NCBI GenBank assembly: GCA_033720855.1
Contig: JAWWBR010000003.1
Location: forward strand, 3,614-67,613
Length of the DNA: 64,000 nt
Direction of reading: 5' to 3'
From: Alphaproteobacteria bacterium
Lineage (GTDB): Bacteria > Pseudomonadota > Alphaproteobacteria > SMXQ01
The notes beneath the pieces were generated by a model that ran no database searches, was not told the DNA's origin, and worked only from the letters and a program-made list of their open reading frames with translations. A program made the position numbers and the translations under genes. This document shows, piece by piece, positions 5,221 through 53,805 of this stretch. Position 1 is the stretch's first letter; every line of letters begins with the position of its first letter.

Positions 5221-5238
5221 AAGCATGGCGGCGCGCGG

Positions 5239-7437: not shown

Positions 7438-7511
7438 ATATCTGCTTGAGACCCCTGTATCTTGGTAGAGCTTGCGGCGAAGCTTCCCCCGCAGCAAGGG
7501 TTTGAACGTCT

Positions 7512-10790: not shown

Positions 10791-10809
10791 TGGGCCCGCC
10801 GGCGCCCGC

Positions 10810-11448: not shown

Positions 11449-11482
11449 GGATCGACCTACCTTCGCCGGACCGCTTCCGGGC

Positions 11483-12370
11483 CTATTCGATATTTTGGAC
11501 TTGTTCGCGAAACTGCTCGATCGCCGCCTTGAGGTCCAAGCCGATGCGGGTCAGCTCCAGGTCCTGAGCCTTCGAGCATAGGGTGTTGGCTTCGCGATTG
11601 AACTCTTGGGACAGGAAATCCAGTCGGCGTCCAATGGCGCCGCCTTGTTTCAACAACTCCCGCGCCTGCCCCACATGGGCATCGAGCCGGTCGATCTCCT
11701 CCCGCACGTCGGCCTTGGCGACGATCAGGGCGATTTCCTGGGCAAGCCGTTCCTCAGTGACAGGCAGGCTTTCCGCAACCAGTTCATCCATCTGGCGGCG
11801 GATGCGCGTACCAATGGCCTCTGGCTGCACGGCGGCAAGGTCCCGGGCCTTGGCGGCGAGGGACTCGATAGTGTCCAGAAACCCGCTCAGAATCGGCGTC
11901 AGCCGAGCGCCTTCCTCATTGCGGGCCGCCGCCACCTTGCCGAGCGCCGCCGCCAAGCTCTCGGCCATGGCATTTTCCCGCGCGGCGCGGGAATCATCGT
12001 CGCCCCCGGGTTCCTCGGGTTCAAGAATGCCGCGCAACCGCAATAAAGCGTCCGCCTGTAGTGGCGCGCCGCCGACTCGCCCACGGACGTCCTCGGCGAT
12101 CTCGATGACCCGCGCAAGCAACGCCTCGTTCAAGCGATAACCGGCGAAGCCCGGCGTCTCGGTCAGGTTCAGGCTGATGTTGAAGCTGCCCCTTTTGAAC
12201 CGCTTGCCAACGGCGTCGCGGACCCGGATTTCAAAACTTTCCATCCCCGGGGGCAGCCTCACGCGCACGTCAAGCCCGCGATTGTTGACGCTGCGCAGTT
12301 CCCAGCGCCATGAAAAGGCATCGAATTCGCCCTCTTCGCGGGCAAAGCCGGTCATGCTTTCGATCGCCAT
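11483..12370 (-). CDS. yicC: YicC-family stress-induced protein (endoribonuclease YicC-like)
   Basis: MTGFAREEGEFDAFSWRWELRSVNNRGLD is typical of the YicC N-domain; the gmk-yicC pair is conserved. Confidence 0.8.
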   Translation of the reverse strand: MAIESMTGFAREEGEFDAFSWRWELRSVNNRGLDVRVRLPPGMESFEIRVRDAVGKRFKRGSFNISLNLTETPGFAGYRLNEALLARVIEIAEDVRGRVGGAPLQADALLRLRGILEPEEPGGDDDSRAARENAMAESLAAALGKVAAARNEEGARLTPILSGFLDTIESLAAKARDLAAVQPEAIGTRIRRQMDELVAESLPVTEERLAQEIALIVAKADVREEIDRLDAHVGQARELLKQGGAIGRRLDFLSQEFNREANTLCSKAQDLELTRIGLDLKAAIEQFREQVQNIE

Positions 12371-12548
12371 TACCCTCGGATTCCCGCTGATTTAGTGGCC
12401 GAAACGTGGCCAACCACTATATCCGGTGGTAAATGCCGCAACAAGACAGGAAATCGCGACCGTCACCGCACTCCAGCCAAGTCCCGACATAGCGGCCGTG
12501 GCATCACTAGTGCTCCTCTTAAGGCTCGGACTGGTCTAGGCTTCCGCC

Positions 12549-13394
12549 ATGATCCCGGCGACACCTAGGCGGATTCTCATAACCGGGGCGTCGTCCGGTA
12601 TCGGCGCCGCTTTGGCCCGCGCCTACGCCGAGGCCGGCGCGGTTCTCCATCTCGGTGGCCGTGACGAGGATCGTCTCTCTGCCGTAGGGGCTCGGTGCCG
12701 GGAATGGGGGGCAAAGGCATTCACGCGCATTCAGGATGTCACCGATCGCTCCGGCATGGCCCGCTGGATCGCCGAGGCGCACGCCGATGGGGGTCTCGAC
12801 CTGGTCATCGCCAATGCCGGGGTGTCGGGGCGGACCAGTGCCCCGGCAGATGGCAATGGGGCCTTGTCAAACGCGGAAGGCCAGAGGCAACTCCGAGAGG
12901 TCATGACGGTCAATATCGATGGTGTCGTGAACACGGTCTTCCCGGCGCTCGAACACATGCTGGCCAATGCGGCGGACCGCCCGCGGGGCGGACAGATCGC
13001 CATCATGAGTTCCCTTGCAGGCTATCGGGGTTTTTCCGACGCTCCGGGCTATTGCGCCAGCAAGGCCGCGGTTAAAGTTCTGGGGGAGGGGCTTCGCGGT
13101 ATGGCCGCCCGGCATGGCATCGGCGTTACCGTTATCTGCCCGGGATTCATCCGCACCCCGATGACCGAGAACAATCCCTTCCCCATGCCGTTCCTGATGG
13201 AAAGCGACCGTGCCGCGGCGATCATCAAGACCGGCCTTGCCCGCAATCGGGCCAGGATCTCTTTCCCCTGGCCGCTGGCGGCGATGGTTTGGTGCTTGGC
13301 GGCTCTTCCGCCTTCTTGGGTCGACGCGCTGTCCAAGCGTGTGTCGGGCGAACCTGCGGCGCCACGCCGCTCGGCGATGACCAAGTCACGGTGA
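12549..13394 (+). CDS. short-chain dehydrogenase/reductase (SDR)
   Basis: ILITGASSGIGAAL Rossmann motif and YxxxK (YCASKAA). Confidence 0.7.
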   Translation: MIPATPRRILITGASSGIGAALARAYAEAGAVLHLGGRDEDRLSAVGARCREWGAKAFTRIQDVTDRSGMARWIAEAHADGGLDLVIANAGVSGRTSAPADGNGALSNAEGQRQLREVMTVNIDGVVNTVFPALEHMLANAADRPRGGQIAIMSSLAGYRGFSDAPGYCASKAAVKVLGEGLRGMAARHGIGVTVICPGFIRTPMTENNPFPMPFLMESDRAAAIIKTGLARNRARISFPWPLAAMVWCLAALPPSWVDALSKRVSGEPAAPRRSAMTKSR

Positions 13395-14411
13395 TGTAGC
13401 CTTGCCGGCCTCGCCCGTAATCGCGCCCCGGTTCTTCAGCCGACGCCATCGGCGAACGTTGCGATTGTGCTCGTCGAGGGTGCGCGAGAATGCGTGCCCA
13501 CCGCTTCCGTCGGCGACGAAATACAGGGCTTTCGTGGGGGCGGGATGGAGCACGGCCAGGAGCGCCTCGCGCCCCGGATTGGCGATGGGATCGGGTGGCA
13601 ATCCCTTGTTGAGATAGGTGTTGTAGGGCCCCGGCGTGGCCAGATCGGCCCGGGTGAGGGCGCGGCCGAGGATCCTCTGCGACGCCGCCTCCCGCACGGC
13701 GATGCCATAAGCGACCGTCGGGTCCGACTGCAAGGCCATCCCCTTTTTGAGCCGATTTAAAAAAACTGCGGCAACGAGTGGGCGTTCTTCCGGTTTTGCG
13801 GTCTCGCGCTCGACGATGGATGCCAGTATCACCGCCTCCCTTGGCGACCGAAGCAACAGCCCGTTCATTCGCTTGGGCCAAAGCTCGGCCACGGCGCGGG
13901 TCATGGCATGTTCCATTCGCAGGATCATTTGCGCCCGCCCGTCACCATAGGAATAGTGATAGGTATCGGGCATCAGCGAGCCTTCCTCCGGCACCTCGAC
14001 GAGGGGGCCGTCAAGGCCGTAGGCCCCATGAACCAATTTGACGACCTGCGCCGACGTCAGACCCTCGGGCACGGTCAACTTGCGGACCACGGTACGGCCG
14101 CTTACGAGAATATCCATAACGCCACGAGCCGACACCCCGCCGGGAAAGTCGTATTCCCCCGCGCGCAGCGCGGATTGCTTCCCCGCAAGCCTGACCCCTG
14201 CGACGAAAAGCAGCGGCGAAGAGATGATACGGTGCCGCTCGAGCAGCCGGCTGATCTCGGCCACGCCCTTGCCCTTGGGAATCACGACCACGGCGTGGCC
14301 TTCAAGCGGCCCCCGACGATCGAGAGAATGATGGAGGAATGCCAGCCCCGCCAGGGCGACGGCACCCAAAAGAAGGGCCGCGAACGCGGATCGTCGCAAC
14401 CAAAGTCGCAC
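13386..14411 (-). CDS. mltG: endolytic murein transglycosylase MltG (YceG-like)
   Basis: N-terminal TM helix plus YceG domain; located downstream of fabF as in many bacteria. Confidence 0.8.
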   Translation of the reverse strand: MRLWLRRSAFAALLLGAVALAGLAFLHHSLDRRGPLEGHAVVVIPKGKGVAEISRLLERHRIISSPLLFVAGVRLAGKQSALRAGEYDFPGGVSARGVMDILVSGRTVVRKLTVPEGLTSAQVVKLVHGAYGLDGPLVEVPEEGSLMPDTYHYSYGDGRAQMILRMEHAMTRAVAELWPKRMNGLLLRSPREAVILASIVERETAKPEERPLVAAVFLNRLKKGMALQSDPTVAYGIAVREAASQRILGRALTRADLATPGPYNTYLNKGLPPDPIANPGREALLAVLHPAPTKALYFVADGSGGHAFSRTLDEHNRNVRRWRRLKNRGAITGEAGKATSP

Positions 14412-14418
14412 CGTGGCC

Positions 14419-15702
14419 TCAGTCCATGTCGGTAAAGATCAACGAGGCATTGGTCCCGCCAAAACCGAAGGAATTGGAAAGCGCGTTGCGGATCTTTCGT
14501 TCCTTGGCTTGGAGTGGCACCAGATCGATGTCACATCCTTCGGACGGATTTTCAAGATTGAGGGTCGGCGGGACGACCCCGTTATGGACGGCGAGAATGC
14601 TGAAAATGGCCTCAACCGCCCCGGCCGCGCCCAAGAGGTGGCCGATCGCGGATTTCGTGGACGACATTGAAATCCGATATGCGTGATCGCCGAAGAGCCG
14701 CTTGACGGCGCCCAACTCGATCTCGTCACCGAGCGGCGTCGAGGTTCCGTGGGCATTGACGTAATCGATGTCTTCGACGTTAAGGCCGGCGCGACGCAAA
14801 GCGCTCTCCATCGCGCGATAGCCGCCGTTGCCGTCCTCCGCCGGAGCGGTGACGTGGTAGGCATCTCCGGACAGGCCGTAGCCGGTGATTTCGGCATAGA
14901 TCTTGGCGTTTCTTTTTTTTGCGTGCTCCAGTTCCTCGAGCACGACCACGCCGGCACCCTCGCCCATTACGAACCCGTCGCGATCCCGGTCCCATGGCCG
15001 CGAGGCCTGTTCGGGCCTGTCATTGAAGTTTGTCGAAAGCGCCCGCGCCGCGGAAAAACCGGCGATGCCCAATCGGCAGACCGCCGCTTCGGTGCCGCCC
15101 GCCACCATGACATCGGCATCATCCATGGTAATCAAGCGCGCCGCATCGCCAATGGCATGGGCCCCGGTGGCGCAGGCCGTCACCACCGCGTGATTCGGTC
15201 CCCGAAACCCGTATTTGATGGAGACGTGCCCGGAAGCGAGGTTGATGAGAGCGGAGGGGATAAAGAACGGGCTGATCCGTCGGGCGCCGCGTTCCTGCAG
15301 GGTGATGGATGACTCGGCGATCGCCGGAAGGCCGCCGATCCCGGACCCGATCATAACCCCCGTGCGGTCGCGATCCTCATCGCCGTCGGGCATCCAACCG
15401 GAATCTTCCACCGCCTGGATCGCCGCTGCGAGCGCGTACACGATGAAGCGGTCCATCTTGCGCTGTTCTTTGGGTTCGACCCAATCATTGGCGTTGAAGG
15501 TCCCGTTCTCGCCATCGCCCGCCGTCACCTCGCCGGCGATGCGACAGGGAAGGTCGGAGACGTCGAAAGCCTCCACCGCACCGATTCCGGACTGGCCGTC
15601 GATCAAGCGGTCCCAGGTTATTTCGACCCCAGTGCCCAAGGGTGTGATCAGGCCCAGGCCGGTTACGACTACGCGTCTCATGAGAGGCTGTAGACTTCCC
15701 AA
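14419..15702 (-). CDS. fabF: 3-oxoacyl-ACP synthase II
   Basis: RRVVVTGLGLITPLG, active-site Cys (ACATGAHAIG) and His-His motifs. Confidence 0.9.
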   Translation of the reverse strand: MGSLQPLMRRVVVTGLGLITPLGTGVEITWDRLIDGQSGIGAVEAFDVSDLPCRIAGEVTAGDGENGTFNANDWVEPKEQRKMDRFIVYALAAAIQAVEDSGWMPDGDEDRDRTGVMIGSGIGGLPAIAESSITLQERGARRISPFFIPSALINLASGHVSIKYGFRGPNHAVVTACATGAHAIGDAARLITMDDADVMVAGGTEAAVCRLGIAGFSAARALSTNFNDRPEQASRPWDRDRDGFVMGEGAGVVVLEELEHAKKRNAKIYAEITGYGLSGDAYHVTAPAEDGNGGYRAMESALRRAGLNVEDIDYVNAHGTSTPLGDEIELGAVKRLFGDHAYRISMSSTKSAIGHLLGAAGAVEAIFSILAVHNGVVPPTLNLENPSEGCDIDLVPLQAKERKIRNALSNSFGFGGTNASLIFTDMD

Positions 15703-15744
15703 ACGGTTCGCAACGGTATCTGCCGAGCGTCCCGAATCGTCGGT

Positions 15745-15978
15745 TTACGTATGGGATTCGATATAGCCGATGGCATCCTTGACGGTGAGGATCTTCTCGG
15801 CGGCGTCATCGGGGATCTCGCATCCGAATTCCTCTTCGAAAGCCATGACGAGTTCGACGGTATCAAGGCTGTCCGCGCCAAGATCGTCGATAAAGCTCGC
15901 GTTTTCCGTGACCTTTGAATCATCCACGCCAAGGTGTTCTACGACAATCTTGGTCACGCGTTCGGCAATATCGCTCAT
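15745..15978 (-). CDS. acpP: acyl carrier protein
   Basis: [12 protein letters not shown]...[20 protein letters not shown] (phosphopantetheine Ser). The ATG at 15978 was verified; the 106-aa track ORF is an upstream overcall. Confidence 0.9.
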
Positions 15979-16165
15979 TTCTTCATCTTTCCTCGGATAT
16001 TGTTCCGGGGGAAAGTCCCCCTGCACAGGTTCCATCGGGTTGGTTCGGCTCTCTTCCCTTGACACTTGCGCCGGTCGCGCACGCTGCCGAAGCCCTCAGA
16101 AACGTGCCGTTGGTATCATACTTTTTTGACCTTGGCCACCCTCCGGCAAACGAGTTGCGGGCCGG

Positions 16166-16903
16166 TCAGATCATGGCCATGCCGCCGTTAACATGGAGCG
16201 TCTGACCTGTGATGTAGGCCGCCTCCTCACTGGCCAAAAACACCGCCGCTGCGGCGATATCGGGAGGCTCTCCAAAACGGCCTTGGGGGATGGCGGAAAG
16301 TATCCGCTCGCGCTGCGCCTCGGTCAGGACGTCGGTCATGGCGGTGGTGATAAAGCCGGGCGCGATGCAGTTCACCGTGATCCCGCGCGCAGCGACCTCG
16401 GCGGCGAGTGACTTGGTCATTCCCGTCAACCCCGCCTTGGATGCCGCGTAGTTGACCTGGCCGGGATTGCCGGTGGCGCCGACGACCGAGGTGATGGAGA
16501 TAATCCGGCCCCAGCGCGCTTTCATCATGTTGCGGATGACGGCACGACTGAGGCGGAAAGCGGCGGTCAAATTGACGTCGATGACCGCTTGCCAGTCATC
16601 GTCGCTCATCCGCATCGCCAAACCGTCACGGGTTAGCCCGGCATTGTTGACGAGGACGTCTATGCCGCCCAGGACGTCCTCCGCGGCGGCGGCGAGGCCC
16701 TCCGCGCCGTCCGCGCTACCAAGGTCGGCGGGCACGGCATAGGCCCGATCGCCGAGTTCGTCGGCCAGGCCCTCCAAGGCTTCGGCACGCGTGCCCGACA
16801 GGGCCACCGCCGCGCCCGCGCCATGTAAAGCGCGGGCGATGGCGCCCCCGATTCCACCACTGGCGCCGGTCACCAGTGCCCCACGGCCTTCAAGACGGAA
16901 CAT
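16166..16903 (-). CDS. fabG: 3-oxoacyl-ACP reductase
   Basis: ALVTGASGGIGGAIA...NNAG...YAASKAG. ATG at 16903 preceded by a GGAGGGG RBS; the track M at 16906 is a GTG. Confidence 0.9.
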   Translation of the reverse strand: MFRLEGRGALVTGASGGIGGAIARALHGAGAAVALSGTRAEALEGLADELGDRAYAVPADLGSADGAEGLAAAAEDVLGGIDVLVNNAGLTRDGLAMRMSDDDWQAVIDVNLTAAFRLSRAVIRNMMKARWGRIISITSVVGATGNPGQVNYAASKAGLTGMTKSLAAEVAARGITVNCIAPGFITTAMTDVLTEAQRERILSAIPQGRFGEPPDIAAAAVFLASEEAAYITGQTLHVNGGMAMI

Positions 16904-16923
16904 CACCCCCTCCCCTCGGACGC

Positions 16924-17862
16924 CTAAAGAAAGGCCTCGATATCGTCGGGCCCTGAAAGCGAAAGCGCCTCCAAATCCTTGTCGATTCGCCGCGCCAGGC
17001 CGGACAGCACTTTACCCGCCCCCAGTTCAACCAGACGCCCGACGCCGTGGTCACGCATCCACAAAACCGATTCCCGCCAGCGCACGACCCCCGTGACCTG
17101 TGCAACGAGTGCCGCCCTGATGTCTTCCGGTGCACTGATTGCCTCCGCCTTGACGTTGGCGACAACCGGAACTGGCGGCACCGCAATATCGACGGAGGCC
17201 AATGCGTCCGCCATGACCTCCGCCGCCGGAGCCATCAGGGGACAATGGGACGGGACCGTGACGGGAAGCATCACCGAGCGCCGTGCGCCCCGCTGCTTGG
17301 CGAGCTCGACGGCGCGGGCGACTGCCTCGGCATTGCCGCTCACCACCACTTGTCCTGGCGCATTATCGTTTGCAGCCGTGCATACATCGCCCTCGGCCGC
17401 GGTTGCGGCGATCTCCGCAACTTCGTCGAAGTCGAGCCCCAGCACCGCCGCCATTGCGCCGACACCGACCGGCGCCGCCTCCTGCATCGCCCGCCCTCGC
17501 GTCTTCAGCAGGGTCGCAGCATCGGCGAGGGAGATGGAGCCGATGGCCGAGAGGGCCGAATATTCGCCCAAAGAATGTCCCGCGACGAATCGCGCGCTGC
17601 CGCCGAGGTCGAGTCCTCCCTCGCGTTGCAATACCCTCACCACGGCCATGCTGACCGCCATCAGCGCGGGCTGGGCGTTTTCGGTCAGGGTCAGCACATC
17701 ATCGGGCCCTTCGAAGATGGTCCTGCTGAGATGCTGTCCCAGGGCCTCGTCGACCTCCTCAAACGTTTGCCGCGCCGAAGCGAAGGCGGCCGCCAGGTCA
17801 CGGCCCATGCCGACGGCCTGCGATCCTTGGCCGGGAAACACGAATGCTTGATCCAGAGCCAT
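16924..17862 (-). CDS. fabD: malonyl-CoA:ACP transacylase
   Basis: FVFPGQGSQ...GHSLGEYSAL active site. Confidence 0.9.
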   Translation of the reverse strand: MALDQAFVFPGQGSQAVGMGRDLAAAFASARQTFEEVDEALGQHLSRTIFEGPDDVLTLTENAQPALMAVSMAVVRVLQREGGLDLGGSARFVAGHSLGEYSALSAIGSISLADAATLLKTRGRAMQEAAPVGVGAMAAVLGLDFDEVAEIAATAAEGDVCTAANDNAPGQVVVSGNAEAVARAVELAKQRGARRSVMLPVTVPSHCPLMAPAAEVMADALASVDIAVPPVPVVANVKAEAISAPEDIRAALVAQVTGVVRWRESVLWMRDHGVGRLVELGAGKVLSGLARRIDKDLEALSLSGPDDIEAFL

Positions 17863-18108
17863 TTGCGTCCTTTACGCGGATTGACGAAGGCCGAGTGATA
17901 ACCTTCTCACCCGCCCTGTCAAGGCCGCGATCCATGATGACTCTGCCGGGGTTGATCATCGCCGGCAATTGTGTATATTGCGCCGCCTTGACATTCCTTG
18001 CCGGGCGCACGGGCGTGCCGGCTAGGTTCGGAATGCCGGGCTTCGCGACCGGTCAGGAGACGGAGCCAAGGACGCCGGACCAGGAACAGCCATAAGGAGT
18101 GTTTGTTC

Positions 18109-18576
18109 ATGCCGCTTTACGAAAGCGTGTTCATCGCACGCCAGGACATATCCTCGTCGCAAGCCGAGGCCCTGGCGGACAGTTTCGCCGATATCGTCTC
18201 CAATTCCGGGGGCACCGTTTCCAAAAAGGAATACTGGGGCCTGCGTAACCTCGCCTACCGCATCAAGAAGAACCGCAAAGGCCATTACACGCTCCTCAAC
18301 ATCGATGCTCCGGCCGGAGCGATCGCAGAGATGGAACGCAACATGCGCCTGCACGAAGACGTCTTGCGCTTCCTGACGGTGCGTGTCGATGACCTCAACG
18401 AAGGACCCTCGCCCATTCTCAGAAGCCGCGAGGAGCGGGGTGCGCGCGGTGGACGGGGTCGGCGCGAGGATGGCGACCGCCCGCGCCGCGACGACCAGCC
18501 CAAACCCCAGCGTGCCGAAGCCAAACCAGCCGCTGAAAACAAAGCCGAAAAAGCGACAGAGGGAGAAGATCAATGA
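18109..18576 (+). CDS. rpsF: 30S ribosomal protein S6 with a charged C-terminal tail
   Basis: [13 protein letters not shown]... The ATG at 18109 was verified, preceded by AAGGAG. The track ORF from 17998 is an upstream overcall. Confidence 0.9.
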
Positions 18577-18812
18577 GAGGCCCCGGTGCACGCCGTCCGT
18601 TTTTCCGGCGCCGCAAGACGTGTCCGTTTTCCGGCCCCAATGCGCCGAAGATCGACTACAAGGACGTCCGTCTCTTGCAGCGGTTCGTCTCCGAGCGCGG
18701 CAAAATCGTCCCCAGCCGCATCACTGCCGTGTCCAACAAGAAGCAGCGGGAACTCGCCAAGGCGATCAAACGGGCCCGGCACCTGGCGTTACTGCCGTTC
18801 GTGGTGAGCTAG
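18573..18812 (+). CDS. rpsR: 30S ribosomal protein S18
   Basis: [59 protein letters not shown]. Confidence 0.9.
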
Positions 18813-18857
18813 CGGACATCGTGGGCCCGGCGCAACCAGCCCGGCCGGGACTGAGAC

Positions 18858-19787
18858 ATGACACGGGATTTTGCGATCGCGGCAGCCGGAGGGCTTTTGA
18901 GTGCGCTCCTCTATCTGTCGGCGCCTTGGGGGTTATTCGGTCCGTTATTGGCGCTTTTTTCGCCCTTCCCGCTGTTCGCCGTGGGATTTGGCCTGGGCCT
19001 CACCGCCTGCGCCCTGGCCGTAGCGGCCGCGCTCCTTACCGCAGCGGTCCTGGGCGGCCTCAGCGGCATGCTTCTGTTCGCCGTGATTTACGGCGTGCCA
19101 GCCTTGATGATCGTGCGGTTCGCGCTCCTCAGCCGGCCCAACGCCGAAGGACAGACCGAATGGTACCCGCCGGGACTTTTGTTGACTTGGATCGCCCTTT
19201 ATGCCGCGGGCGCCTTCGTGGCAACGGCTATCTTCATTACGGGTCCGGACGGGCTGGAGCGCGCGATTTCCCAGCACATCGACTCGCTCCGCGAGATTTT
19301 CCCGCGATCTGGACAGGACGGGGCGCCGATCGATCAAGCGTTGGCGGCGACAAAACCGCTGTTTCCGTTCCTCGTTGCAACCTGGTGGATGGCATTCACC
19401 ATCGTCAATGGCACCCTTGCCCAGGGGGTCCTCGAACGCCGCGGCTTGGCTCTACGACCCTCTCCCGATCTCACCACCACCGCCTTGCCTCACTGGTTCG
19501 CCGGCGTGATGGTTGCCGCGATAGTGGTGGCCTTGCTAGGATCGGGGTGGCTCAGCTTCTTGGGGGGCAATGTCGCGCGCATCCTCTGCGTTCCGTATTT
19601 CCTGGTAGGGCTCGCGGTGGTGCATTCGGTTTCGACGGCATGGCCAGGCAGAAGGGCGATCCTGTTTGCCGTATACCTCCTCTTGTTGCTGCTGGGCTGG
19701 ATCGCGGTGGTGGTGGTTGCCGGACTTGGTTTTTTGGATTATTGGGCCGGTTTGAGACAGCGTTTCGGCCGCCCCGACCGCGGTTGA
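18858..19787 (+). CDS. polytopic inner-membrane protein (DUF2232-like) embedded in the rpsF-rpsR-rplI operon
   Basis: 309 aa with ~8 predicted TM helices and no catalytic motif. Its position between rpsR and rplI recurs in alphaproteobacteria. Confidence 0.55.
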   Translation: MTRDFAIAAAGGLLSALLYLSAPWGLFGPLLALFSPFPLFAVGFGLGLTACALAVAAALLTAAVLGGLSGMLLFAVIYGVPALMIVRFALLSRPNAEGQTEWYPPGLLLTWIALYAAGAFVATAIFITGPDGLERAISQHIDSLREIFPRSGQDGAPIDQALAATKPLFPFLVATWWMAFTIVNGTLAQGVLERRGLALRPSPDLTTTALPHWFAGVMVAAIVVALLGSGWLSFLGGNVARILCVPYFLVGLAVVHSVSTAWPGRRAILFAVYLLLLLLGWIAVVVVAGLGFLDYWAGLRQRFGRPDRG

Positions 19788-19802
19788 GAAAGGAAAGAGG
19801 TT

Positions 19803-20471
19803 ATGGAAGTCATCTTGTTGGAGCGGATTGAAAAACTCGGTCAGATGGGAGACATCGTCAACGTCAAGGCAGGCTATGCACGGAATTTCCTGCTGCCGCA
19901 AAACAAGGCGTTGAGGGCGACAGCCCAAAACCGGGAGCAGTTCGAGGCGCGGCGCGCCGAATTGGAAACCGCCAACGCGGAACGGCGGTCCTTGGCGGAA
20001 AAGGCCGCCACGGGCATAGAAGGCAGTTCGGTGGTCTTGGTCCGCCAAGCAAGCGACGCCGGCCAACTCTACGGTTCGGTCCGTCCCCGCGACATTGCCA
20101 ATGCACTCAACGAACAAGGCGCCGAAATCGACCGTACCCAGGTCAAGCTTGACACCCCCATAAAGATGATCGGGCTTCATACCGTGCGTATCGCCGTCCA
20201 CCCCGAAGTGGTGGTGGAAATTACGGCAAACGTCGCCCGCTCCGAAGATGAAGCGGAGCTCCAGGCCCAGGGCAAGTCCTTGATCGACGCTGACGCAGAG
20301 GAGACCGAGGCCGATTACGAGGAGGCCTTGGAGGCCGAAGAAGAGAAGATCGCGGGTGAGGTCGAAGACCTGACCGAGGAGGAAGAGGCCGGTTCCACGA
20401 ACGTCGCCATGGAGGCGGCGGAGGATCAGGCAGGGGCAGACTCAGGTGAAGAGGAGTCCCGCGCCACATGA
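19803..20471 (+). CDS. rplI: 50S ribosomal protein L9 with a ~70-aa acidic C-terminal extension
   Basis: MEVILLERIEKLGQMGDIVNVKAGYARNFLLPQ; 222 aa versus ~150 for typical L9; tail rich in E/D/A. Confidence 0.9.
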   Translation: MEVILLERIEKLGQMGDIVNVKAGYARNFLLPQNKALRATAQNREQFEARRAELETANAERRSLAEKAATGIEGSSVVLVRQASDAGQLYGSVRPRDIANALNEQGAEIDRTQVKLDTPIKMIGLHTVRIAVHPEVVVEITANVARSEDEAELQAQGKSLIDADAEETEADYEEALEAEEEKIAGEVEDLTEEEEAGSTNVAMEAAEDQAGADSGEEESRAT

Positions 20472-45480: not shown

Positions 45481-46281
45481 GTGTCCAATGATAAGGCGTT
45501 TGCCGATCGCGCTACCGTCGACGTGCCCAGCGACGAACCAAAGGTCCGCAAGATCGGCATCCATGACCTGATCGATGTTTTGGCCAAAGGTTTCGACGAT
45601 TTCAAGGCTAAGCCCAGTCATCTTGTCTTGTGCGTCATGATTTACCCCGTGGTGGTTTTCGTCATCGCCAAGATCGACGCGGGGCATGAGATCCTCCCGC
45701 TGATCTGGCCGCTATTCTCGGGGGTTGCACTGGTGGGGCCCCTGCTCGCCATGGGGCTTTACGAAATGAGCCGTCGGCGTGAGCAGGGATTGGAGGTGTC
45801 CTTGAAGGATGGGTTCCGGGTTTTGCGCTCACCCTCTCTCGGCGCCATCCTGATCCTCAGCTTGGTGATGATCGCGATCTTCCTGGCTTGGCTGCGGACG
45901 GCGCTGGCAATTTACGACTGGGTCTTCAGCGGCGGCGAAGCGGTGGAGATCGGCGATTTCATTCAACAGGTCCTCTACACGGCCAAAGGCACGGAATTGA
46001 TCATCATCGGCACGGCTGTCGGTTTCGGCTTTGCCGTAATGGTGTTGTGCCTCAGCGCGGTGTCCTTTCCCCTGTTGCTGGACCGCAAGGTCGGCGCCCT
46101 GACCGCGGCCAAAACCTCGGTCCGCGTGGTCCTCGCCAACCCCGTCACCATGGCGGTCTGGGGTATCATCATCGCGGCGCTGTTACTGGTCGGATCTTTG
46201 CCGCTATTCGTCGGACTGGCCGTGGCCATACCCGTGCTCGGTCATTCGACTTGGCACCTTTACCGCAAGACCGTCGAGTAA
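45481..46281 (+). CDS. integral membrane protein, DUF2189-like
   Basis: 266 aa, GTG start with GAGGAGG RBS, ~5 TM helices; this family is typically encoded next to cytochrome oxidase operons. Confidence 0.45.
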   Translation: MSNDKAFADRATVDVPSDEPKVRKIGIHDLIDVLAKGFDDFKAKPSHLVLCVMIYPVVVFVIAKIDAGHEILPLIWPLFSGVALVGPLLAMGLYEMSRRREQGLEVSLKDGFRVLRSPSLGAILILSLVMIAIFLAWLRTALAIYDWVFSGGEAVEIGDFIQQVLYTAKGTELIIIGTAVGFGFAVMVLCLSAVSFPLLLDRKVGALTAAKTSVRVVLANPVTMAVWGIIIAALLLVGSLPLFVGLAVAIPVLGHSTWHLYRKTVE

Positions 46282-46284
46282 GCT

Positions 46285-47487
46285 CTAAGCGACACCTTGA
46301 ACCTGGGATTGCCAGGAAATCCCTCCCAGCCCCGGCAGATTTGGGGTTCGCCCTGCAACTTCCAGCACCCTGGGGTGGTCGAGAACGGCCATGCGCTCGC
46401 CATCGTGGACCTTGCGGCCACCGATGGTCAGGGTACCGCCGCGAATTTCGCAAGCCGTATGCAGGTTGTAGGGGAAATCCTTGTCGCGCCCCCCCTGCCC
46501 CAAATGGATGTGCAGACTAGAGGGATGGAAAGAGGCGATGAATTCGCGGTAGTCCTCGTCGGCACATTCCGACGGTGAGATCAAGGCAGAGGGGTGCACG
46601 CCGCCGTGCGGTGCCCGCATCTCATAGGCATGATCCTCGCCGATGGAGTTGGCGAGCGCCGCCAGGAAAGCGCGCAGGGTGTCGGCCTCTGCACCCCCTT
46701 CGACCTTGACTATATGGGTGTCCTTCACCGTGACCGTGACCGGTTCGCTGAAATGTGGCGGCACCCCGATGTTATGGGCCCAGACGGGCATCATGCGGTC
46801 GAAAATGTAAATTCCCTCGCAGTCCACCGGGTTGACGGCGGGATATATGCCATCGGGAAAGGGGCGGTAGAAGCCGTCCCGGCGCCAATACACATAGGTG
46901 GGCCGGGTCTTCGGGCCGGGACCGACTTTGCCCGTCAGGTGGGTCCCGTTGGGATGAGTCAGCTCCCATGGCTCGCCGGCGACGACCAGCTCCCCCATGC
47001 GGTAGCGGATTTCGGCAATCAGGTCATGGGGGGTACGCGCCCAATCGGTCATCAACAGCGATGCCGTCGTCGCCATGTTGCGGACCATGGGCAATTCGTA
47101 CTCGCGCAATGTTTCCGGCAGTTCCTTCAGATGCTCTTCGGAGGACAGATCGAATACATGGCTGATCAGGATATCCGCTTCTTTCATGGCCGCCTTGACA
47201 TCGCCCGGGATGCGCCAAACCGTCTCCCTGGTGGCGATGTCGGGCCAGATCAGCTGCGGTCTGTCCGGCATATCCACCCACATCACCTTGGCGTCCGCGC
47301 CACGCTTGCGAACGCCGTCCGCAATCCACCCGACCGTGGCCTGATCGACGATGTTGGCGCCACCGTTGAGGCCGTCATTGGCGGCCAAGATCAGGACGTT
47401 CTGGCCAGCCTGGATGCAGGCGCAGTTATCCAGAAGATCATTGACCGCGGTGGCGGCCTTGTCCGGGATGTCAGGCAAGTCGTTCAC
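46285..47487 (-). CDS. M29 (aminopeptidase T/AmpS)-like metalloprotein, possibly NicX-like dioxygenase
   Basis: 400 aa; N-terminal AVNDLLDNCACIQAGQNVLILAANDG and C-terminal ...HIVKVEGGAEADTLRAFL... follow the M29 family layout. Catalytic residues not verified. Confidence 0.45.
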   Translation of the reverse strand: MNDLPDIPDKAATAVNDLLDNCACIQAGQNVLILAANDGLNGGANIVDQATVGWIADGVRKRGADAKVMWVDMPDRPQLIWPDIATRETVWRIPGDVKAAMKEADILISHVFDLSSEEHLKELPETLREYELPMVRNMATTASLLMTDWARTPHDLIAEIRYRMGELVVAGEPWELTHPNGTHLTGKVGPGPKTRPTYVYWRRDGFYRPFPDGIYPAVNPVDCEGIYIFDRMMPVWAHNIGVPPHFSEPVTVTVKDTHIVKVEGGAEADTLRAFLAALANSIGEDHAYEMRAPHGGVHPSALISPSECADEDYREFIASFHPSSLHIHLGQGGRDKDFPYNLHTACEIRGGTLTIGGRKVHDGERMAVLDHPRVLEVAGRTPNLPGLGGISWQSQVQGVA

Positions 47488-47556
47488 GGTGTCCTCCCAG
47501 ATCCTAGTCCTTGTCTAGCTATCCCGCCGCCCGCTTCGGAGGCCGCCGCGATCGCA

Positions 47557-48330
47557 TCACCGGCGTGTACGGCCCGCGGTCGCCCCGCCGTCCAAAACGA
47601 TCACGGCACCCGTCAGATAGCCCGCCGCCTCGGACGCCAGATACGACACCATATGGGCGACATCGGCGGTGGTGCCCCGGCGGCCGATGGGGATGTTTTC
47701 GGGTGGGGATTGTTCCTCCGACGCGCTCCCCGGCCGGTGACGGATGGACCCGGGCGCGATGCAGTTGACGGTAATACCGTAGGGTCCCGCCTCCACGGCG
47801 AGGACCTTGGTCAGCATCGCCACCGCCGCCTTCGAGGCCGCATAGGCGCCGCCCGTTGCATAGGGCGAAAGGCCGCTGATGGAGCCGATATTGACGATGG
47901 CGCCACGACCATGCTGTTTCATATAAGGGAGCGCACGTTGACTGCAGAGCATGGTCCCCTCGACATTGACGCGGAAGGTTTCGCGCCATGTACCCGGGTC
48001 GTGGTCTTCGATCAATTCGAGCGGGTGAACGGCGGCGTTATTGCACAGGAGGTCCAATCGGCCAAAGGTTTCAACGGCACTGTCGATGGCATGGCGCGCC
48101 CCGTCTTCGCTGCCGATGTCGGCCTCCACGAAACGCAATCTCCCGGTTTCGTCGCCTGCCGCCGATGCCGCCGAGCACGCACCTCCGTCCCTATCGGCGG
48201 CGACGACCGACATCCCCTCGCCGGCCAAGTGCCGGGCGATGGCATATCCGATGCCGCTGGCGCCTCCGGTGACGACGGCAACACGCGAGGTTTCAGCCAA
48301 TACCACGTCCTCCGGCCCGTCCGCGAACAC
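47557..48330 (-). CDS. short-chain dehydrogenase/reductase (SDR)
   Basis: VAVVTGGASGIGYAIA...NNAA...YAASKAA. Confidence 0.75.
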   Translation of the reverse strand: MFADGPEDVVLAETSRVAVVTGGASGIGYAIARHLAGEGMSVVAADRDGGACSAASAAGDETGRLRFVEADIGSEDGARHAIDSAVETFGRLDLLCNNAAVHPLELIEDHDPGTWRETFRVNVEGTMLCSQRALPYMKQHGRGAIVNIGSISGLSPYATGGAYAASKAAVAMLTKVLAVEAGPYGITVNCIAPGSIRHRPGSASEEQSPPENIPIGRRGTTADVAHMVSYLASEAAGYLTGAVIVLDGGATAGRTRR

Positions 48331-49131
48331 TCAAGCCGCCAGCACCGGCTCGGGTCTTGGCTGACGTTTGTCGATCGAAGGCGGAATAAGGCCCGAGGCC
48401 TCGAAACACCACACGCCGACCTGGTCAGACCAAATGCGGTTGACCTCCTGCCTTTCCCGCATCGCCGCCAAACAGGAATCCTGCTTCTCCCTTGTGTCGG
48501 CAAACTGGTCCAAAAAATCGAGCGGCGCATCTCCATGACCGCCTTCGCCGCCGTCGGCGGCGTCCGCCGAGTCCCAATGCGCCAAAGCCGTTTCGGAAAG
48601 CCCCAGGGAGGCAAAGGTGTCTCGCGAGGTGCGGGCCCGCTCGCCGACGCGCTCGATCATCGCCTTGCCGCGGGCGACCTCGTTGCCGGCGATGGCCGCG
48701 AAGGCTTCGAGCCACGGCTTGGTTCGGCTCACCCAATCGCAGTATGCGATTCGCATCTTGGTGACGGGGGCGCCGGTATAAGCAAGAACAAATTCTCTCT
48801 CGGCACCCAGTTCGTCGACGAAGTCGACCAGGCTCTCGTAGTGGCCGGTGGGGATCGTGGGGTCCTTGACCTCCTCCACGAACATATTTTCGATCAGGTA
48901 TTTGCGCACCTCGAGGTGAGGGCAGTTGCCCGTGATATTGGCCAACCAGCGGGGAAAATTCGCCGCGAACACGCAGTGCTCCAAGCCGTACACCAATGCC
49001 CCTTCACGCGTGAGATGATTGCGCAAAAAATCCTCGAGGATCGTCGGCGTATCCCATCGCATTTCCTGCAAAAGATCGAGAATGGCCTCCCTGAATTGCT
49101 CGGACGTTCGTGTCATCGCACCGTCTCCCAT
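48331..49131 (-). CDS. heme-oxygenase-like fold protein (TenA/PqqC/CADD iron-containing redox enzyme family)
   Basis: 266 aa all-helical protein with E/H-rich segments (GLEHCVF, ENMFVEE, GHYESLVDFVDELG) resembling HO-like diiron enzymes; tentative. Confidence 0.45.
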   Translation of the reverse strand: MGDGAMTRTSEQFREAILDLLQEMRWDTPTILEDFLRNHLTREGALVYGLEHCVFAANFPRWLANITGNCPHLEVRKYLIENMFVEEVKDPTIPTGHYESLVDFVDELGAEREFVLAYTGAPVTKMRIAYCDWVSRTKPWLEAFAAIAGNEVARGKAMIERVGERARTSRDTFASLGLSETALAHWDSADAADGGEGGHGDAPLDFLDQFADTREKQDSCLAAMRERQEVNRIWSDQVGVWCFEASGLIPPSIDKRQPRPEPVLAA

Positions 49132-49318
49132 CCTTTGTTCCCGAGTTTACCGGGCGTTGCCGATCAGGGTACGGCAAGGAGCGGCCACCGCACAACGGTG
49201 TTGGCAATATGGTTGCTGGCACCCAGCCGGATGCGACGCCGGGGGCACCTGGAGCGGTGCGGATATGAGTCGCGACCGCCCCGGTCGGATCGATGAGTGT
49301 TAGGGATTGTGGCGGCGT

Positions 49319-50821
49319 TCAGGCGCTCTGGCGCATCAAAGCCGCCAAAGCCTCTTCCGGCTTCGGGGTCTTCGGCTGGGTGGCCTCGCTCTTGACGAAG
49401 AGGTTGAGCATCGCATCGCGAACGTTGTCCGGCGTGAACTGCGGCGAAATTCCCTCGAACTTACATGCCGACAGCACTTGCGAAACGATGAACTGCGGGT
49501 GGAAATAAGCCAGCGGCGCATCATTGGCCCGAATTTCGTCCAACACCTGCTGATAGATCTCTTCGCTAAGCTCGATGCCTTCCTTATTCGAGACATCCTC
49601 AAACACCTTGCGGAAGAGTTCCTCCGAAGGCTCCACGGTCTCCAGCTTGTACGTGATGCGGCGCAGGAATGCGGGGTCCATCAGGTCGTTGGGATGCATA
49701 TTGGTGGAGAAGATCACCAGTTCGTCGAAGGGAATCTGGAAAGACTTACCGGTGTGCAGATTCAGGTAATCCACCCGATCGTTCAAGGGCATGATCCAGC
49801 GGTTGAGAATGTGCTCCGGCTCCACTCTCTGACGACCGAAATCGTCGATCAGGAAGACGCCGTTCAATGCCTTGATCTGTAACGGCGCCTCATAGAACTT
49901 GGAAATCTCGCTGAACTGGAGGTCGAGCATATCGAGCGTCAACTCTCCCCCGGTCACCACCATCGGCCTGTGACACGGAACCCAGCGCTTGTCCATCACT
50001 TCACGGTGAAGGGTGGGCCGGGAATCCACCCCGGCCGCGGCGTCGCTGATCGGCTTGTGAACACTGGGATCGAAAACCTTGATGATCTGGCCGTCGACCT
50101 CGAAACAATGGGGGATATAGACGACGTTGCGGAACATTTCGGCGATGATCTGTGCGACCGTCGTCTTGCCATTGCCTGCCGGCCCATAAATCAGAATCGC
50201 GGTTCCGGAATTGATCGCCGGCCCGAGGCGATTGATAAAGCGATCCGGGATGACGAGGTGCTTGAAAGCCTCCCGGATGTCATCCAAATTCACCCACTCA
50301 TTGGTAACACGCTGCAGAGCGACGCGCTCCTGATACGCCTCCAGGCTCACCGGCGCCGGGCCGAAATACTGACATTGATCCAGCGATTCGTTGGCCCAGT
50401 CGCGTCCCAGGCTGGTGAGCTGATACCGCATCTCCGAAAACAGGGTGCTCGCCGAATCGGCTTGCCCCACGATTTCGGCCATTTTTCGCTCCACCGCATC
50501 TTGCAGCAGCTCGTTGACCAACGCGTTGGGAAGCCGCATCGCTTCCGACATCTGTGATGGTGTTTCGAAATTCTCCGTGTGCATGCCCTTGATCATGAGC
50601 TGCAGCAACATCATGGGATCAACGTCGATTTCACTGAGATTGCGTGGCGCTTCGGGGGTCTCGCCCAGGACGGCGTTTATATCGTCCTCGCTGATGACGC
50701 CAAGGGCCACGAGACAATCGCCAAAGCGCCCTCCGTTCTCGTGCTGATATTTCAATCCCTGCTCAATATCGGCAGGCGTAACCAAGCCCTTGGCTACCAA
50801 AATGTCGCCCAATAACAGCAT
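49319..50821 (-). CDS. fusion protein: T2SS-E N-terminal (MshEN-like) domain plus CbbX/SpoVK-type AAA+ ATPase
   Basis: The N-terminus has two tandem 24-aa motifs, LLGDILVAKGLVTPADIEQGLKYQ and RFGDCLVALGVISEDDINAVLGET, separated by a 5-aa spacer. The AAA+ part has Walker A ILIYGPAGNGKTTVA, Walker B VFLIDDFG and sensor-2 FLRRITYKLE. Start chosen at the ATG at 50821 with an AAGGAA RBS; alternative at 50920. Confidence 0.65.
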   Translation of the reverse strand: MLLLGDILVAKGLVTPADIEQGLKYQHENGGRFGDCLVALGVISEDDINAVLGETPEAPRNLSEIDVDPMMLLQLMIKGMHTENFETPSQMSEAMRLPNALVNELLQDAVERKMAEIVGQADSASTLFSEMRYQLTSLGRDWANESLDQCQYFGPAPVSLEAYQERVALQRVTNEWVNLDDIREAFKHLVIPDRFINRLGPAINSGTAILIYGPAGNGKTTVAQIIAEMFRNVVYIPHCFEVDGQIIKVFDPSVHKPISDAAAGVDSRPTLHREVMDKRWVPCHRPMVVTGGELTLDMLDLQFSEISKFYEAPLQIKALNGVFLIDDFGRQRVEPEHILNRWIMPLNDRVDYLNLHTGKSFQIPFDELVIFSTNMHPNDLMDPAFLRRITYKLETVEPSEELFRKVFEDVSNKEGIELSEEIYQQVLDEIRANDAPLAYFHPQFIVSQVLSACKFEGISPQFTPDNVRDAMLNLFVKSEATQPKTPKPEEALAALMRQSA

Positions 50822-51086
50822 CACACGCGTTCCTTTTTCATCAATCCGGCCACGGCGCCACCCTGCCACCCGGGGGTACGGCTGGGCCACGGGACCTCTC
50901 GCGTCAATGGCCTCAAGCAAAAGGCTTTGGGCCCTGCGCGACGCTAACCTGAATTTATTGACGAAAAGTTATCCCTTACCGTGACCGAACAGATGGAGGA
51001 CGGCTCCGGTCCGATAAGCCCTTGCCGGCGGCTCCGCGTGTGAGCAGTTGCTATAATCCAGCCCGAAACTGAAGGGAGGTCCCATC

Positions 51087-51773
51087 ATGCGCCTGACCTT
51101 GACCGAGTGGCAGGATTTTGCCTTCGTTCAACTTTCCGCGGAAGCGGCACCCGATGGGGATCCGCGGACCGAAACCGAAAGCCTGTTCGCGGAATTTTCC
51201 CAAGCGCTCGCTGCCGAGGATCTATCGCTCGCCAACACCGTGCGGAGCCGGATTTATGGGCGCGACCGAAGTGCCCGGGATGCCGCCAGCGACGTTCGTC
51301 GGGACGCGCTTTCGGGGCGAGCACGGGCCGCGACATCGAGTTACATCGCACCGTCGAGGTTCGCATCGAAAGCCAGCGTCGCCATGGACCTGATCGCACT
51401 ACGGCCCGCCCCCGGGCTTGACAAGGTCATCCGCGAAAACGATCCCCCGAGGCTTCCCTGCCGGTACCTGACTTGTGGCCCGCTGATCGTCTTCTCCGGA
51501 CAGACCGCTGTCCTGCCCGGTCTGGAAACCCAACTGGAGACCGATATCCTGCCGCGATTAACCGCGTATTTGGACGAGGCGGGCAGCACTTGGAAGCAAG
51601 TTGTCCGGACCGTCTGCTATCTGCACACCAGCCAAAGCCCCAAGCGCCTGCACGAAATTCTCGATAATCAACTCCCCTGCCTTCCCCAGCGATTGGACGT
51701 CCGTTTCGTCGACGGGTACTCCGCAGAGGGCAAGCTGGTCGAGGTCGAGGTGACGGCCCTACGCGAGCGCTGA
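51087..51773 (+). CDS. RidA/YjgF-family protein (two RidA-like segments)
   Basis: The C-terminal half matches the RidA pattern (FSGQTA...L.EAGS...VV.T.C.L...). An N-terminal degenerate repeat of the same fold is suggested. Confidence 0.45.
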   Translation: MRLTLTEWQDFAFVQLSAEAAPDGDPRTETESLFAEFSQALAAEDLSLANTVRSRIYGRDRSARDAASDVRRDALSGRARAATSSYIAPSRFASKASVAMDLIALRPAPGLDKVIRENDPPRLPCRYLTCGPLIVFSGQTAVLPGLETQLETDILPRLTAYLDEAGSTWKQVVRTVCYLHTSQSPKRLHEILDNQLPCLPQRLDVRFVDGYSAEGKLVEVEVTALRER

Positions 51774-52824: not shown

Positions 52825-53805
52825 ATGGGAGACCTCACTCTCGATATCGCAATAAGCGATTACGACCACGTTCGAGACCTCGTCGATGGCAAGGTCAAGG
52901 CCCCGGGCATTGCCCTCAACCACATTGACCTTCCGGTAGAGGATATCTTCTCTCGCTTCACCGAGCACCGCGAATGGCATGTATCGGAAATGTCCCTCGC
53001 CCGTTTTGTCTCCCTGACCTCTCAGGGCGACGAAAACCTGACGGGGATTCCGGTGTTCCCGTCGCGGTTCTTTCGCCAACACGCGATTTACGTGACTTCC
53101 GATAGCCCTTTGACCTGCGCCGCGGACTTGGCCGGAAAAAAAGTCGGCATCCCGGAATGGGTCCAGACCGCGATCGTCTACGTTCGCGCCTGGCTCATGC
53201 ATGATGTCGGCATCCCGATGGAAGACATCCAGTGGTTTCGTGCGGGGATAAACAGTCTTTCCAATTGGAGCCAGGTCAAGGGGATCATCCCAGAAGGGGT
53301 ATCCTATCAGGAGGTGACCGACCGATCGCTGATGGACATGTTGCTGACGGGAGATTTGGACGCAGTGATCTGCGCCCACCCGCCCGACCTGTTCCAGGCG
53401 AGAGATCCCCGCATCCGGCGCTTGATCGCCGATTTTCAGCCCCTTGAGGAAGCCTATTGGGAAAAGGAAAAGATCTTTCCGATGATGCATACGGTGGCCA
53501 TCCGCAGGGATGTCTACGATGCCCACCCGTGGATCGGCCCCAGCCTGTTCGGTGCCTTTAGCGAAGCCAAGAACCGAAGCCTGGAACGCGCACTGGACGG
53601 CAACATATGCCGCTTCCCGATCCCTTGGTGTTTTGCCTATGCGGAAAAATCACGAGACATGTTCGGCGACGACTTCTGGCCTTACGGGGTGGAGGCGAAC
53701 CGCCCAACCCTCGAGGCTTTCGTGAGGTTCTGCGACGAACAAGGCGTGACCCACAGGCCCGTCTCCGTGGACGAACTTTATCCGAAAAACGTGCTCGACC
53801 TGTGA
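52825..53805 (+). CDS. NMT1/THI5-like periplasmic-binding-fold protein, 4,5-dihydroxyphthalate decarboxylase (PhtD)-like
   Basis: N-terminal LTLDIAISDYDHVRDLVDGKVK matches the PhtD-like family signature; cytoplasmic (no signal peptide). Confidence 0.4.
   Translation: MGDLTLDIAISDYDHVRDLVDGKVKAPGIALNHIDLPVEDIFSRFTEHREWHVSEMSLARFVSLTSQGDENLTGIPVFPSRFFRQHAIYVTSDSPLTCAADLAGKKVGIPEWVQTAIVYVRAWLMHDVGIPMEDIQWFRAGINSLSNWSQVKGIIPEGVSYQEVTDRSLMDMLLTGDLDAVICAHPPDLFQARDPRIRRLIADFQPLEEAYWEKEKIFPMMHTVAIRRDVYDAHPWIGPSLFGAFSEAKNRSLERALDGNICRFPIPWCFAYAEKSRDMFGDDFWPYGVEANRPTLEAFVRFCDEQGVTHRPVSVDELYPKNVLDL

Follow-up and report, generated by a model that had tools for sequence, protein, structure and literature searches.

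A conserved cluster of heme-oxygenase-like, short-chain dehydrogenase and NicX-fold genes in uncultured bacteria, with a possible role in the catabolism of aromatic-type acids

Four genes standing in a row on the minus strand of an alphaproteobacterial contig (JAWWBR010000003.1, positions 3,614 to 67,613; this stretch of 64,000 nucleotides is called the window below) raise the questions of which of them belong together and what they might do. They encode, in the direction of transcription, protein A, which combines an MshEN domain with a P-loop ATPase, the heme-oxygenase-like (HO-like) protein B, the short-chain dehydrogenase/reductase (SDR) C, and protein D, which has the NicX/M29 fold. An earlier note on this DNA had described the four as one co-directional cluster, and its description of the locus was accurate. 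The open reading frames (ORFs) are present in the ORF listing at 49319–50920 (A), 48331–49131 (B), 47557–48330 (C), and 46285–47487 (D), the gaps of 187 nt (A–B), 0 nt (B–C), and 69 nt (C–D) are right for the longest-ORF starts, and all four family labels (MshEN-like/AAA+, HO-like, SDR, and M29-like) hold in profile, motif, and fold searches. The extent of the unit and its likely role are seen differently here.

The conservation of the gene neighborhood, a comparison that the note had proposed, was followed in two scans. The first one (tblastn with the window proteins) was anchored on D, took one genome per species, and returned 66 loci, all in metagenome-assembled genomes (MAGs). Wherever the homolog of D was at least about 58% identical, B, C, and D were found in the same order and on the same strand, in MAGs labeled as Alphaproteobacteria, Rhizobium, ‘delta proteobacterium’/Binatia, and Gemmatimonas; homologs of D below 50% identity had neither B nor C nearby. 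The second scan, independent of the first, was anchored on B, covered metagenomes, and returned 79 loci. Among B homologs of at least 58% identity, an SDR gene adjoins in 27 of the 35 loci that offered enough sequence, and 18 of 24 contain D. Pooled and de-duplicated, the two scans yielded 40 unique loci with B, C, and D together (the triad) besides the window. The conserved unit is, with high confidence, B-C-D without A. The notion of a small module outside housekeeping metabolism thus stands for the HO-like, SDR, and M29-like genes, which are kept together across phyla, but it does not extend to the AAA+ gene, found beside the triad in only 5 of the 40 loci, and the four-gene unit that the note had drawn has to be given up. 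A B–SDR pair as a deeper conserved unit finds little support: among 22 loci in which B is less than 58% identical, 3 have the pair. Two loci with a B homolog of about 50% identity have the SDR gene directly after it, and one of them (L080, 4651–12303) also carries a Rieske LigXa-like oxygenase, an isochorismatase, and hydantoinase A/B, whereas the other (L081, 1–7523) carries a Rieske protein, a cupin, and a thiamine pyrophosphate enzyme. Literature searches on the HO-like/SDR/NicX pairing, on PF26233, and on PF14518 in catabolism returned nothing relevant.

The region upstream of B is consistent with independent control of the triad. An upstream alignment revealed a conserved element at 49170–49196 on the minus strand (GTTGTGCG...TCCxTGCCxTA), which might act as promoter or operator for B-C-D. 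In its fuller form it reads GTTGTGCG...TCC(A/T)TGCC(G/T)TA(G/C)TCT and lies 55–95 nt ahead of the start codon of B. It is conserved in all six aligned relatives, including locus L086, and occurs once in the window, compared with 0.03 occurrences expected by chance; on its 3′ side, the GGGAG ribosome-binding site at 49125–49129 is also conserved. In L086, a divergent decarboxylase gene and not A is located upstream of B, and the element is still kept. Since the element is retained whichever gene stands upstream, B-C-D would appear, as far as can be judged from sequence, to possess a promoter or operator of their own. The B-upstream motif CTTGTGCGTGCGGCGACCTATG is tandemly duplicated in L086 (about 7900–7990), and such a duplication is more in keeping with a site for a regulator than with a promoter alone. 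Consensus scans for promoters and terminators gave none on the minus strand, a result with no bearing on whether the genes form one operon. The idea of a riboswitch or other structured leader ahead of B was discarded, with no Rfam match above noise in the gap and a fold z-score of −0.6.

Protein B (48331–49116, minus strand, 261 residues) most likely starts at the ATG at 49116, with GGGAG 8 nt upstream and in agreement with the 261-residue call of NCBI for an identical protein, rather than at 49131, where the longest ORF begins; with this start the gap between B and A amounts to 202 nt. Its assignment as an HO-like protein of the HDO/CADD/PqqC type (HDO, HO-like dimetal oxidase) is based on Pfam, on the AlphaFold2 (AF2) model searched with Foldseek, and on invariant residues. 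The scores are 31.7 bits for Haem_oxygenas_2 (cut-off 28.9) and 28.4 bits for TENA_THI-4 (cut-off 22), and the AF2 model, with a predicted local distance difference test (pLDDT) score of 91.4, has the seven-helix HO-like fold. Foldseek matches with a probability of 1.0 comprise 4lqx, CADD, PqqC, BesC, UndA, and HrmI, with the metal-free TenA also among the nearest; the closest solved relative, 4lqx, has no assigned function. CADD is an Fe/Mn enzyme, BesC, UndA, and HrmI are diiron enzymes, and PqqC and TenA are metal-free. Residues E86, H97, E151, D193, and H199 are invariant in 22 sequences that share 45–100% identity, and they align to E81, H88, E142, D178, and H181 of CADD, which we take to be the numbering of its ligands (counting along the 1rcw sequence places Tyr27 and Lys152 correctly). 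Glu86 and His97 are located in core helix α1, Glu151 in α2, and Asp193 and His199 in α3. When compared with the 3His/3carboxylate ligand positions by which the HDO family is defined (PMC7848743, PMC13108848), five of the six dimetal positions are therefore invariant in B, but the sixth, the first His of core α3, is replaced by Ala or Gly. The sequence is that of a protein that is probably a metal-dependent oxygenase with an atypical α3.

Protein C (47557–48330, minus strand, 257 residues), the start of which abuts the stop codon of B, is a classical NAD(H)-type SDR according to its Pfam matches (adh_short_C2, 192.5 bits; adh_short, 185 bits) and motifs. These include TGGASGIG at residues 21–28, Asp46 after strand β2, NNAA at 97–100, Ser150/Ser152, and Y163xxxK167; the aspartate after β2 suggests a preference for NAD(H). 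The nearest solved relatives (BacC, PtmO8, and FabG) are generic and give no hint of the substrate.

Protein D (46285–47487, minus strand, 400 residues), which is identical to a protein on record from an Alphaproteobacteria MAG, belongs to an uncharacterized, His-rich clade of metalloproteins with the NicX/M29 fold. Searched alone against local Pfam, NCBIfam, and, as a single sequence, the PDB, it gave no match, and a family profile was needed. Its homologs carry the precomputed Pfam assignment PF26233 ‘NicX’, the family profile reaches the NicX structure 7cn3 in the PDB (E 1.2e-5), and hhalign against genuine NicX gives a probability of 99% (E 4e-18, 307 columns). In agreement with this, the best Foldseek match of the AF2 model (pLDDT 88.8) is NicX (7cup/7cn3, E 7.5e-17, template modeling (TM) scores 0.62/0.70), followed by the M29 aminopeptidases PepS/AmpS. 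The clade is small and separate, with 64 representatives at E ≤ 1e-30 among 1.84 billion.

To our knowledge, NicX is the only characterized non-peptidase of the M29 fold, and its serine ligand is regarded as peculiar. The Fe(II) ion of NicX is bound by His265, Ser302, His318, and Asp320, and the substrate by His105, Glu177, and His189 (PMC7910607). In D, the position of His318 is taken by the invariant H343, the sole identical match among the iron ligands, and that of Ser302 by the invariant H328. Asp320 corresponds to A345 (A/T/S), and His265 to A292 (A/G/C/N), with the invariant H294 two residues later. The substrate residues His105, Glu177, and His189 are replaced by S115 (S/P/T/V), T197 (variable), and P209, respectively, while Arg293, which positions Asp320, is kept as R314. 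A check of the metal ligands of D, also proposed earlier, therefore has a mixed outcome: five histidines are invariant (H294, H298, H326, H328, and H343), as are C308 and E267, but the ligands of NicX are matched identically at only one position. The conserved residues delineate a candidate metal site predicted to be all-His or His-rich, formed by the five histidines together with E267 and C308. Because the substrate residues of NicX are lacking, its Fe ligands are mostly replaced, and the candidate metal site is different, D was rejected as a 2,5-dihydroxypyridine dioxygenase. None of the partners NicC, NicD, and NicF, or other genes of the nic-pic lower pathway (deformylase, maleamate amidase, hydroxylase), were found in the triad loci, whereas loci with a genuine NicX (L073–L076) do carry nic/pic lower-pathway genes; a gene of the isochorismatase family was seen only in the Binatia variant without B, described below. 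In a superfamily alignment with intermediates, the H-x-H arrangement seen as H326/H328 in D is common in uncharacterized relatives, and the L-x-S302 of genuine NicX is the exception, so that the serine iron ligand of NicX looks derived from histidine. A distant NicX-like ‘hypothetical protein’ without an equivalent of His265 is encoded on a Haladaptatus plasmid (L078, 1–3243) between a TcuA-type flavoprotein and a TctC binding protein, a layout that echoes the link between the NicX fold and TctC around D.

The genes that surround the triad in other genomes fall into three types of context. In the first one, that of the window lineage, a decarboxylase homolog and, after it, a variable set of MscS, RidA-like, and A genes stand ahead of B-C-D, with a convergent DUF2189 gene downstream. 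In the second and largest group, a divergent LysR gene precedes B in 18 loci, and in 17 the gene directly after D encodes a TctC/Bug binding protein; a VOC protein of about 195 residues (9 loci) and a 318-residue ‘DHDPS-family’ protein (8 loci) are further additions. The latter is closest to PhdJ and NahE, the hydratase-aldolases of phenanthrene and naphthalene degradation (E 5e-33 to 2e-30, compared with 3e-17 for DHDPS), and the VOC protein resembles extradiol-dioxygenase and glyoxalase domains. In the third, Binatia-like context the triad is flanked by an SBP_bac_6 binding protein, and one such locus (L100) adds a UbiD-family decarboxylase, two NMT1-like proteins, a second HO-like gene, and an Amidohydro_2 protein.

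The decarboxylase homolog of the window (52825–53805, plus strand, 326 residues) has no match in Pfam or NCBIfam and aligns over its full length to a 4,5-dihydroxyphthalate decarboxylase (PDB 9jp7, E 4.4e-59). It is found near B-C-D in L006, L083, and L085 and directly divergent from B in L086, and it is possibly a lineage-specific accessory of the module; paralogs accompany the triad in L007 and a D-like gene in L047. L047, from a Desulfobacteraceae MAG, has a D homolog of 42% identity in a co-directional run, with a decarboxylase homolog and an IclR regulator upstream and the full TctCBA transporter directly after. A variant without B in MAGs of Binatia/Thermodesulfobacteriota (L023, L027, and L029, around 5000–19000) comprises D, Amidohydro_2, VOC, a C-like SDR (62%), and an Opp-type ATP-binding cassette (ABC) transporter, with isochorismatase-family and nitrile-hydratase-alpha-like genes divergent from the D group. 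The layout of this variant is reminiscent of the pic/nic lower pathways.

No genes for nonribosomal peptide synthetases, polyketide synthases, or other biosynthetic cores were present in any triad locus examined. The suggestion of small-molecule tailoring or biosynthesis, made from the HO-like/SDR pairing, is thus not borne out, as the neighbors are uptake, regulatory, and degradative genes. Taken together, the regulators, the uptake proteins, the three families of decarboxylases, and the ring-fission-type accessories point to catabolism of an imported, aromatic-type carboxylate.

With moderate confidence, we propose that B-C-D encode the central oxidative enzymes of a pathway by which a carboxylic acid of aromatic or N-heteroaromatic type is degraded after import. 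Gene content, conserved order, folds, and conserved residues were observed directly; a role in catabolism, the sequence in which the enzymes act, their individual chemistry, and the class of substrate are inferred. In such a route the carboxylate would first be taken up with the help of TctC or ABC binding proteins, under LysR regulation in some lineages. B would then activate O2 and oxygenate the substrate, by hydroxylation or oxidative decarboxylation, and C would dehydrogenate the resulting hydroxyl or dihydrodiol function in an NAD-dependent step. D, with its putative His-rich metal site, might open or hydrolyze the ring, and the product would be funneled further in a lineage-specific manner, through the VOC protein, an aldol cleavage of the NahE/PhdJ type, and decarboxylation by an enzyme of the dihydroxyphthalate-decarboxylase, UbiD, or Amidohydro_2 type.

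Several observations weigh against this proposal. The lineage of the window itself lacks LysR, TctC, VOC, and the hydratase-aldolase, and the catabolic setting is therefore partly borrowed from orthologous loci, while every triad locus from the genome collections is a MAG. In B, the sixth ligand column is occupied by A/G189, with an invariant H185 four residues earlier, and the fold is shared with the metal-free PqqC and TenA, which weakens the case for metal dependence. D is devoid of NicX Asp320 and of all three substrate residues, and the equivalent of His265 is out of register; D could be a hydrolase instead of a dioxygenase. Moreover, HO-like dimetal enzymes have been described mainly from natural-product biosynthesis (PMC13108848).

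A hydrolytic D is at the center of the explanation that competes best, although we regard it as unlikely: the triad would process a modified amino acid, small peptide, or amide, with B oxidizing a side chain, C acting on its product, and D serving as an M29-type metallohydrolase (amidase or aminopeptidase). The model of D also matches PepS and AmpS (E about 1e-11), its many conserved histidines together with Glu267 could form a binuclear hydrolytic site, and the characterized HDOs act mostly on amino acids (PMC13108848). Some of the neighbors would suit such a role as well, since the Binatia variant includes an Opp-type SBP_bac_5 ABC transporter, an isochorismatase-family amidase, and a nitrile-hydratase-like protein, and B homologs in L080 pair with hydantoinase/oxoprolinase genes. 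However, D is closer in fold to NicX than to the M29 peptidases (E 7.5e-17 vs 3e-11), its profile reaches only NicX, and the recurrent PhdJ/NahE-like aldolase, VOC protein, and aromatic-acid decarboxylases fit ring fission better.

It is less probable still, and on balance improbable, that the triad serves in the salvage or remodeling of a heterocycle of the cofactor type, such as a pyrimidine or pyridine related, for example, to thiamine or pyrroloquinoline quinone (PQQ), with B a metal-free, TenA/PqqC-like protein. The TENA_THI-4 match of B and its PqqC- and TenA-like fold would agree with this, as would the label ‘PQQ biosynthesis protein C’ that JGI gives to its homologs, the NMT1/THI5-like proteins adjoining the triad in L100, and a ThiC gene within 5 kb of the triad in L022. 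Nevertheless, the invariant Glu, His, and Asp residues of B coincide with the dimetal positions of CADD and not with the metal-free members, the triad has no further pqq or thi genes beside it, unrelated genes intervene between it and ThiC in L022, and most genomes lack the module, which is unlike a cofactor pathway.

The original picture of a possibly c-di-GMP-regulated A-B-C-D operon for tailoring or biosynthesis is very improbable. In its favor, all four genes are co-directional, a consensus scan found no terminator-like site in the A–B gap, and the five closest relatives with enough sequence have A ahead of B. Against it, 35 of the 40 triad loci lack A (among them L086, where B is 83% identical), the family of A is much larger and its neighbors elsewhere are unrelated, the conserved element upstream of B is located in the interval between A and B, and no locus contains biosynthetic core genes.

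Protein A (49319–50821, minus strand, 500 residues) is a fusion of an MshEN domain, of the type that binds cyclic di-GMP (c-di-GMP), with an AAA+/P-loop ATPase. Its start is most likely the ATG at 50821, with AAGGA upstream and the MshEN domain beginning directly after it; the longest ORF extends to 50920. The MshEN model NF053729 is matched with 57.7 bits (cut-off 38), and two tandem MshEN motifs of the 24-residue type, at residues 3–23 and 32–52, are both intact, so that binding of c-di-GMP is predicted. The ATPase part has a Walker A motif (GPAGNGKT, 213–220) and a Walker-B-like VFLIDD; the Pfam AAA models score near or under their cut-offs, no Pfam model spans the body of the protein, and the PDB matches are to the N-terminal domains of PilF and MshE.

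The five loci in which A adjoins the triad are all close relatives of the window, with B at least 85% identical, and they keep the entire surrounding synteny (DUF2189, RidA-like, MscS, and the decarboxylase homolog), whereas A is absent from L086 despite 8 kb of sequence upstream of B. Three homologs of A with 59–68% identity in other genomes (L070–L072) have unrelated neighbors and no triad. Searches gave at least about 8000 matches for A, compared with 219 for B and 123 for D, which makes the family of A at least 30 times larger. Its members, of about 490 residues, come mostly from alphaproteobacterial assemblies, have varying neighbors, and appear to be functionally uncharacterized. The low frequency of adjacency, the absence in L086, the much larger family, and the unrelated neighbors elsewhere place A outside the module: it is a separate, widespread gene held next to the triad only by recent synteny. 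In practical terms, the function of the c-di-GMP ATPase should be considered apart from that of the enzymes B, C, and D. A role in anti-phage defense was rejected, as PADLOC gave just P-loop-level matches for A and none for B, C, and D.

The cluster is embedded in the core chromosome. Along the window, PepA, LptD, SurA, FabF, DnaB, RadA-like, PurF, GuaA, GuaB, tRNA-Gln, and the cox genes are followed by DUF2189, the triad (D-C-B), A, the RidA-like gene, MscS, the decarboxylase homolog, and pssA/psd, and the GC content at the cluster is ordinary. The less-conserved block postulated on the 3′ side of tRNA-Gln was not recognized, and a genomic island beside this tRNA gene was rejected on account of the flanking core genes, the normal GC content, and the synteny in relatives. 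D and the plus-strand gene of the DUF2189 membrane protein converge, with stop codons 3 nt apart (46281–46285), leaving no space for an intergenic terminator; this convergent layout is kept in L004–L006, L043, L082, L083, and L085. Divergent from A is a gene for a RidA/YjgF-like protein of 228 residues (51087–51773, plus strand), with an N-terminal extension of about 120 residues that has no family match; its position is kept in the close relatives L006, L083, L084, and L085. Elsewhere in the window, a 482-residue ORF at 18383–19831 (plus strand), with no Pfam match at E ≤ 1e-5 amid a well-annotated core region, could encode an unassigned protein, unless it is a spurious ORF of high GC content.

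All three protein superfamilies of the triad are known, and a catabolic gene cluster is ordinary in kind. What is new is that an HO-like enzyme of the dimetal type is part of a conserved combination in a degradative setting, that the NicX fold includes a His-rich clade, and that the module is restricted to uncultured lineages, having been found only in those of soil and sediment (Alphaproteobacteria, Binatia, and Gemmatimonas). We can speculate further, though we find it rather doubtful, that the triad represents an undescribed oxidative route, in which an HO-like dimetal enzyme replaces the Rieske or flavin hydroxylase and D founds a new class of the M29/NicX fold, with an all-His center ancestral to the Ser/Asp site of NicX, acting on an unrecognized environmental aromatic or heteroaromatic acid. 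If true, a catabolic partnership with an SDR and a NicX-fold protein would widen the known roles of HO-like dimetal enzymes and offer enzymologists a defined three-protein system. The clade of D also provides a natural comparison for the evolution of the NicX metal site, as most uncharacterized relatives have His at the position of Ser302, and the module may mark an unrecognized trait for the degradation of aromatic-type acids, relevant to carbon turnover.

Comparison of the triad with known systems reveals a mixture of shared and divergent features at each level. B shares with the HDOs (CADD, UndA, BesC, SznF, and HrmI) the seven-helix fold, and five of its invariant residues align with the ligand positions of CADD, whereas the first His of α3 is absent, His185 is located one turn earlier, a three-residue insertion precedes His199, and an invariant Glu51-His52 pair is additional; its genomic setting appears to be catabolic, and not a natural-product cluster. 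D resembles NicX, the 2,5-dihydroxypyridine 5,6-dioxygenase of Pseudomonas putida, in fold, in H343 and R314, in the GGxEA motif, and in the pair Asp95/D105, but the identity is only about 13–19%, and the substrate triad is replaced by Ser/Thr/Pro. With the M29 aminopeptidases (AmpS, PepS, and AmpT), D has the two-domain fold in common (Foldseek E about 1e-11 to 1e-8), although the TM score is only about 0.5 and these proteins are not detected by sequence profile; no mapping of the M29 peptidase ligands onto D was obtained, as even the superfamily profile fails to reach M29 structures by sequence.

At the level of gene clusters, the triad loci recall those for the degradation of naphthalene, phenanthrene, and phthalate, with which they share PhdJ/NahE, VOC (NahC), and dihydroxyphthalate decarboxylase homologs, an SDR (NahB), and a divergent LysR gene. 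In contrast to these clusters, the accessories of the triad differ between lineages, the core has an HO-like enzyme in place of a Rieske or flavin hydroxylase, and the constant candidate for ring processing is a protein with the NicX fold rather than a VOC, LigB, or cupin enzyme.

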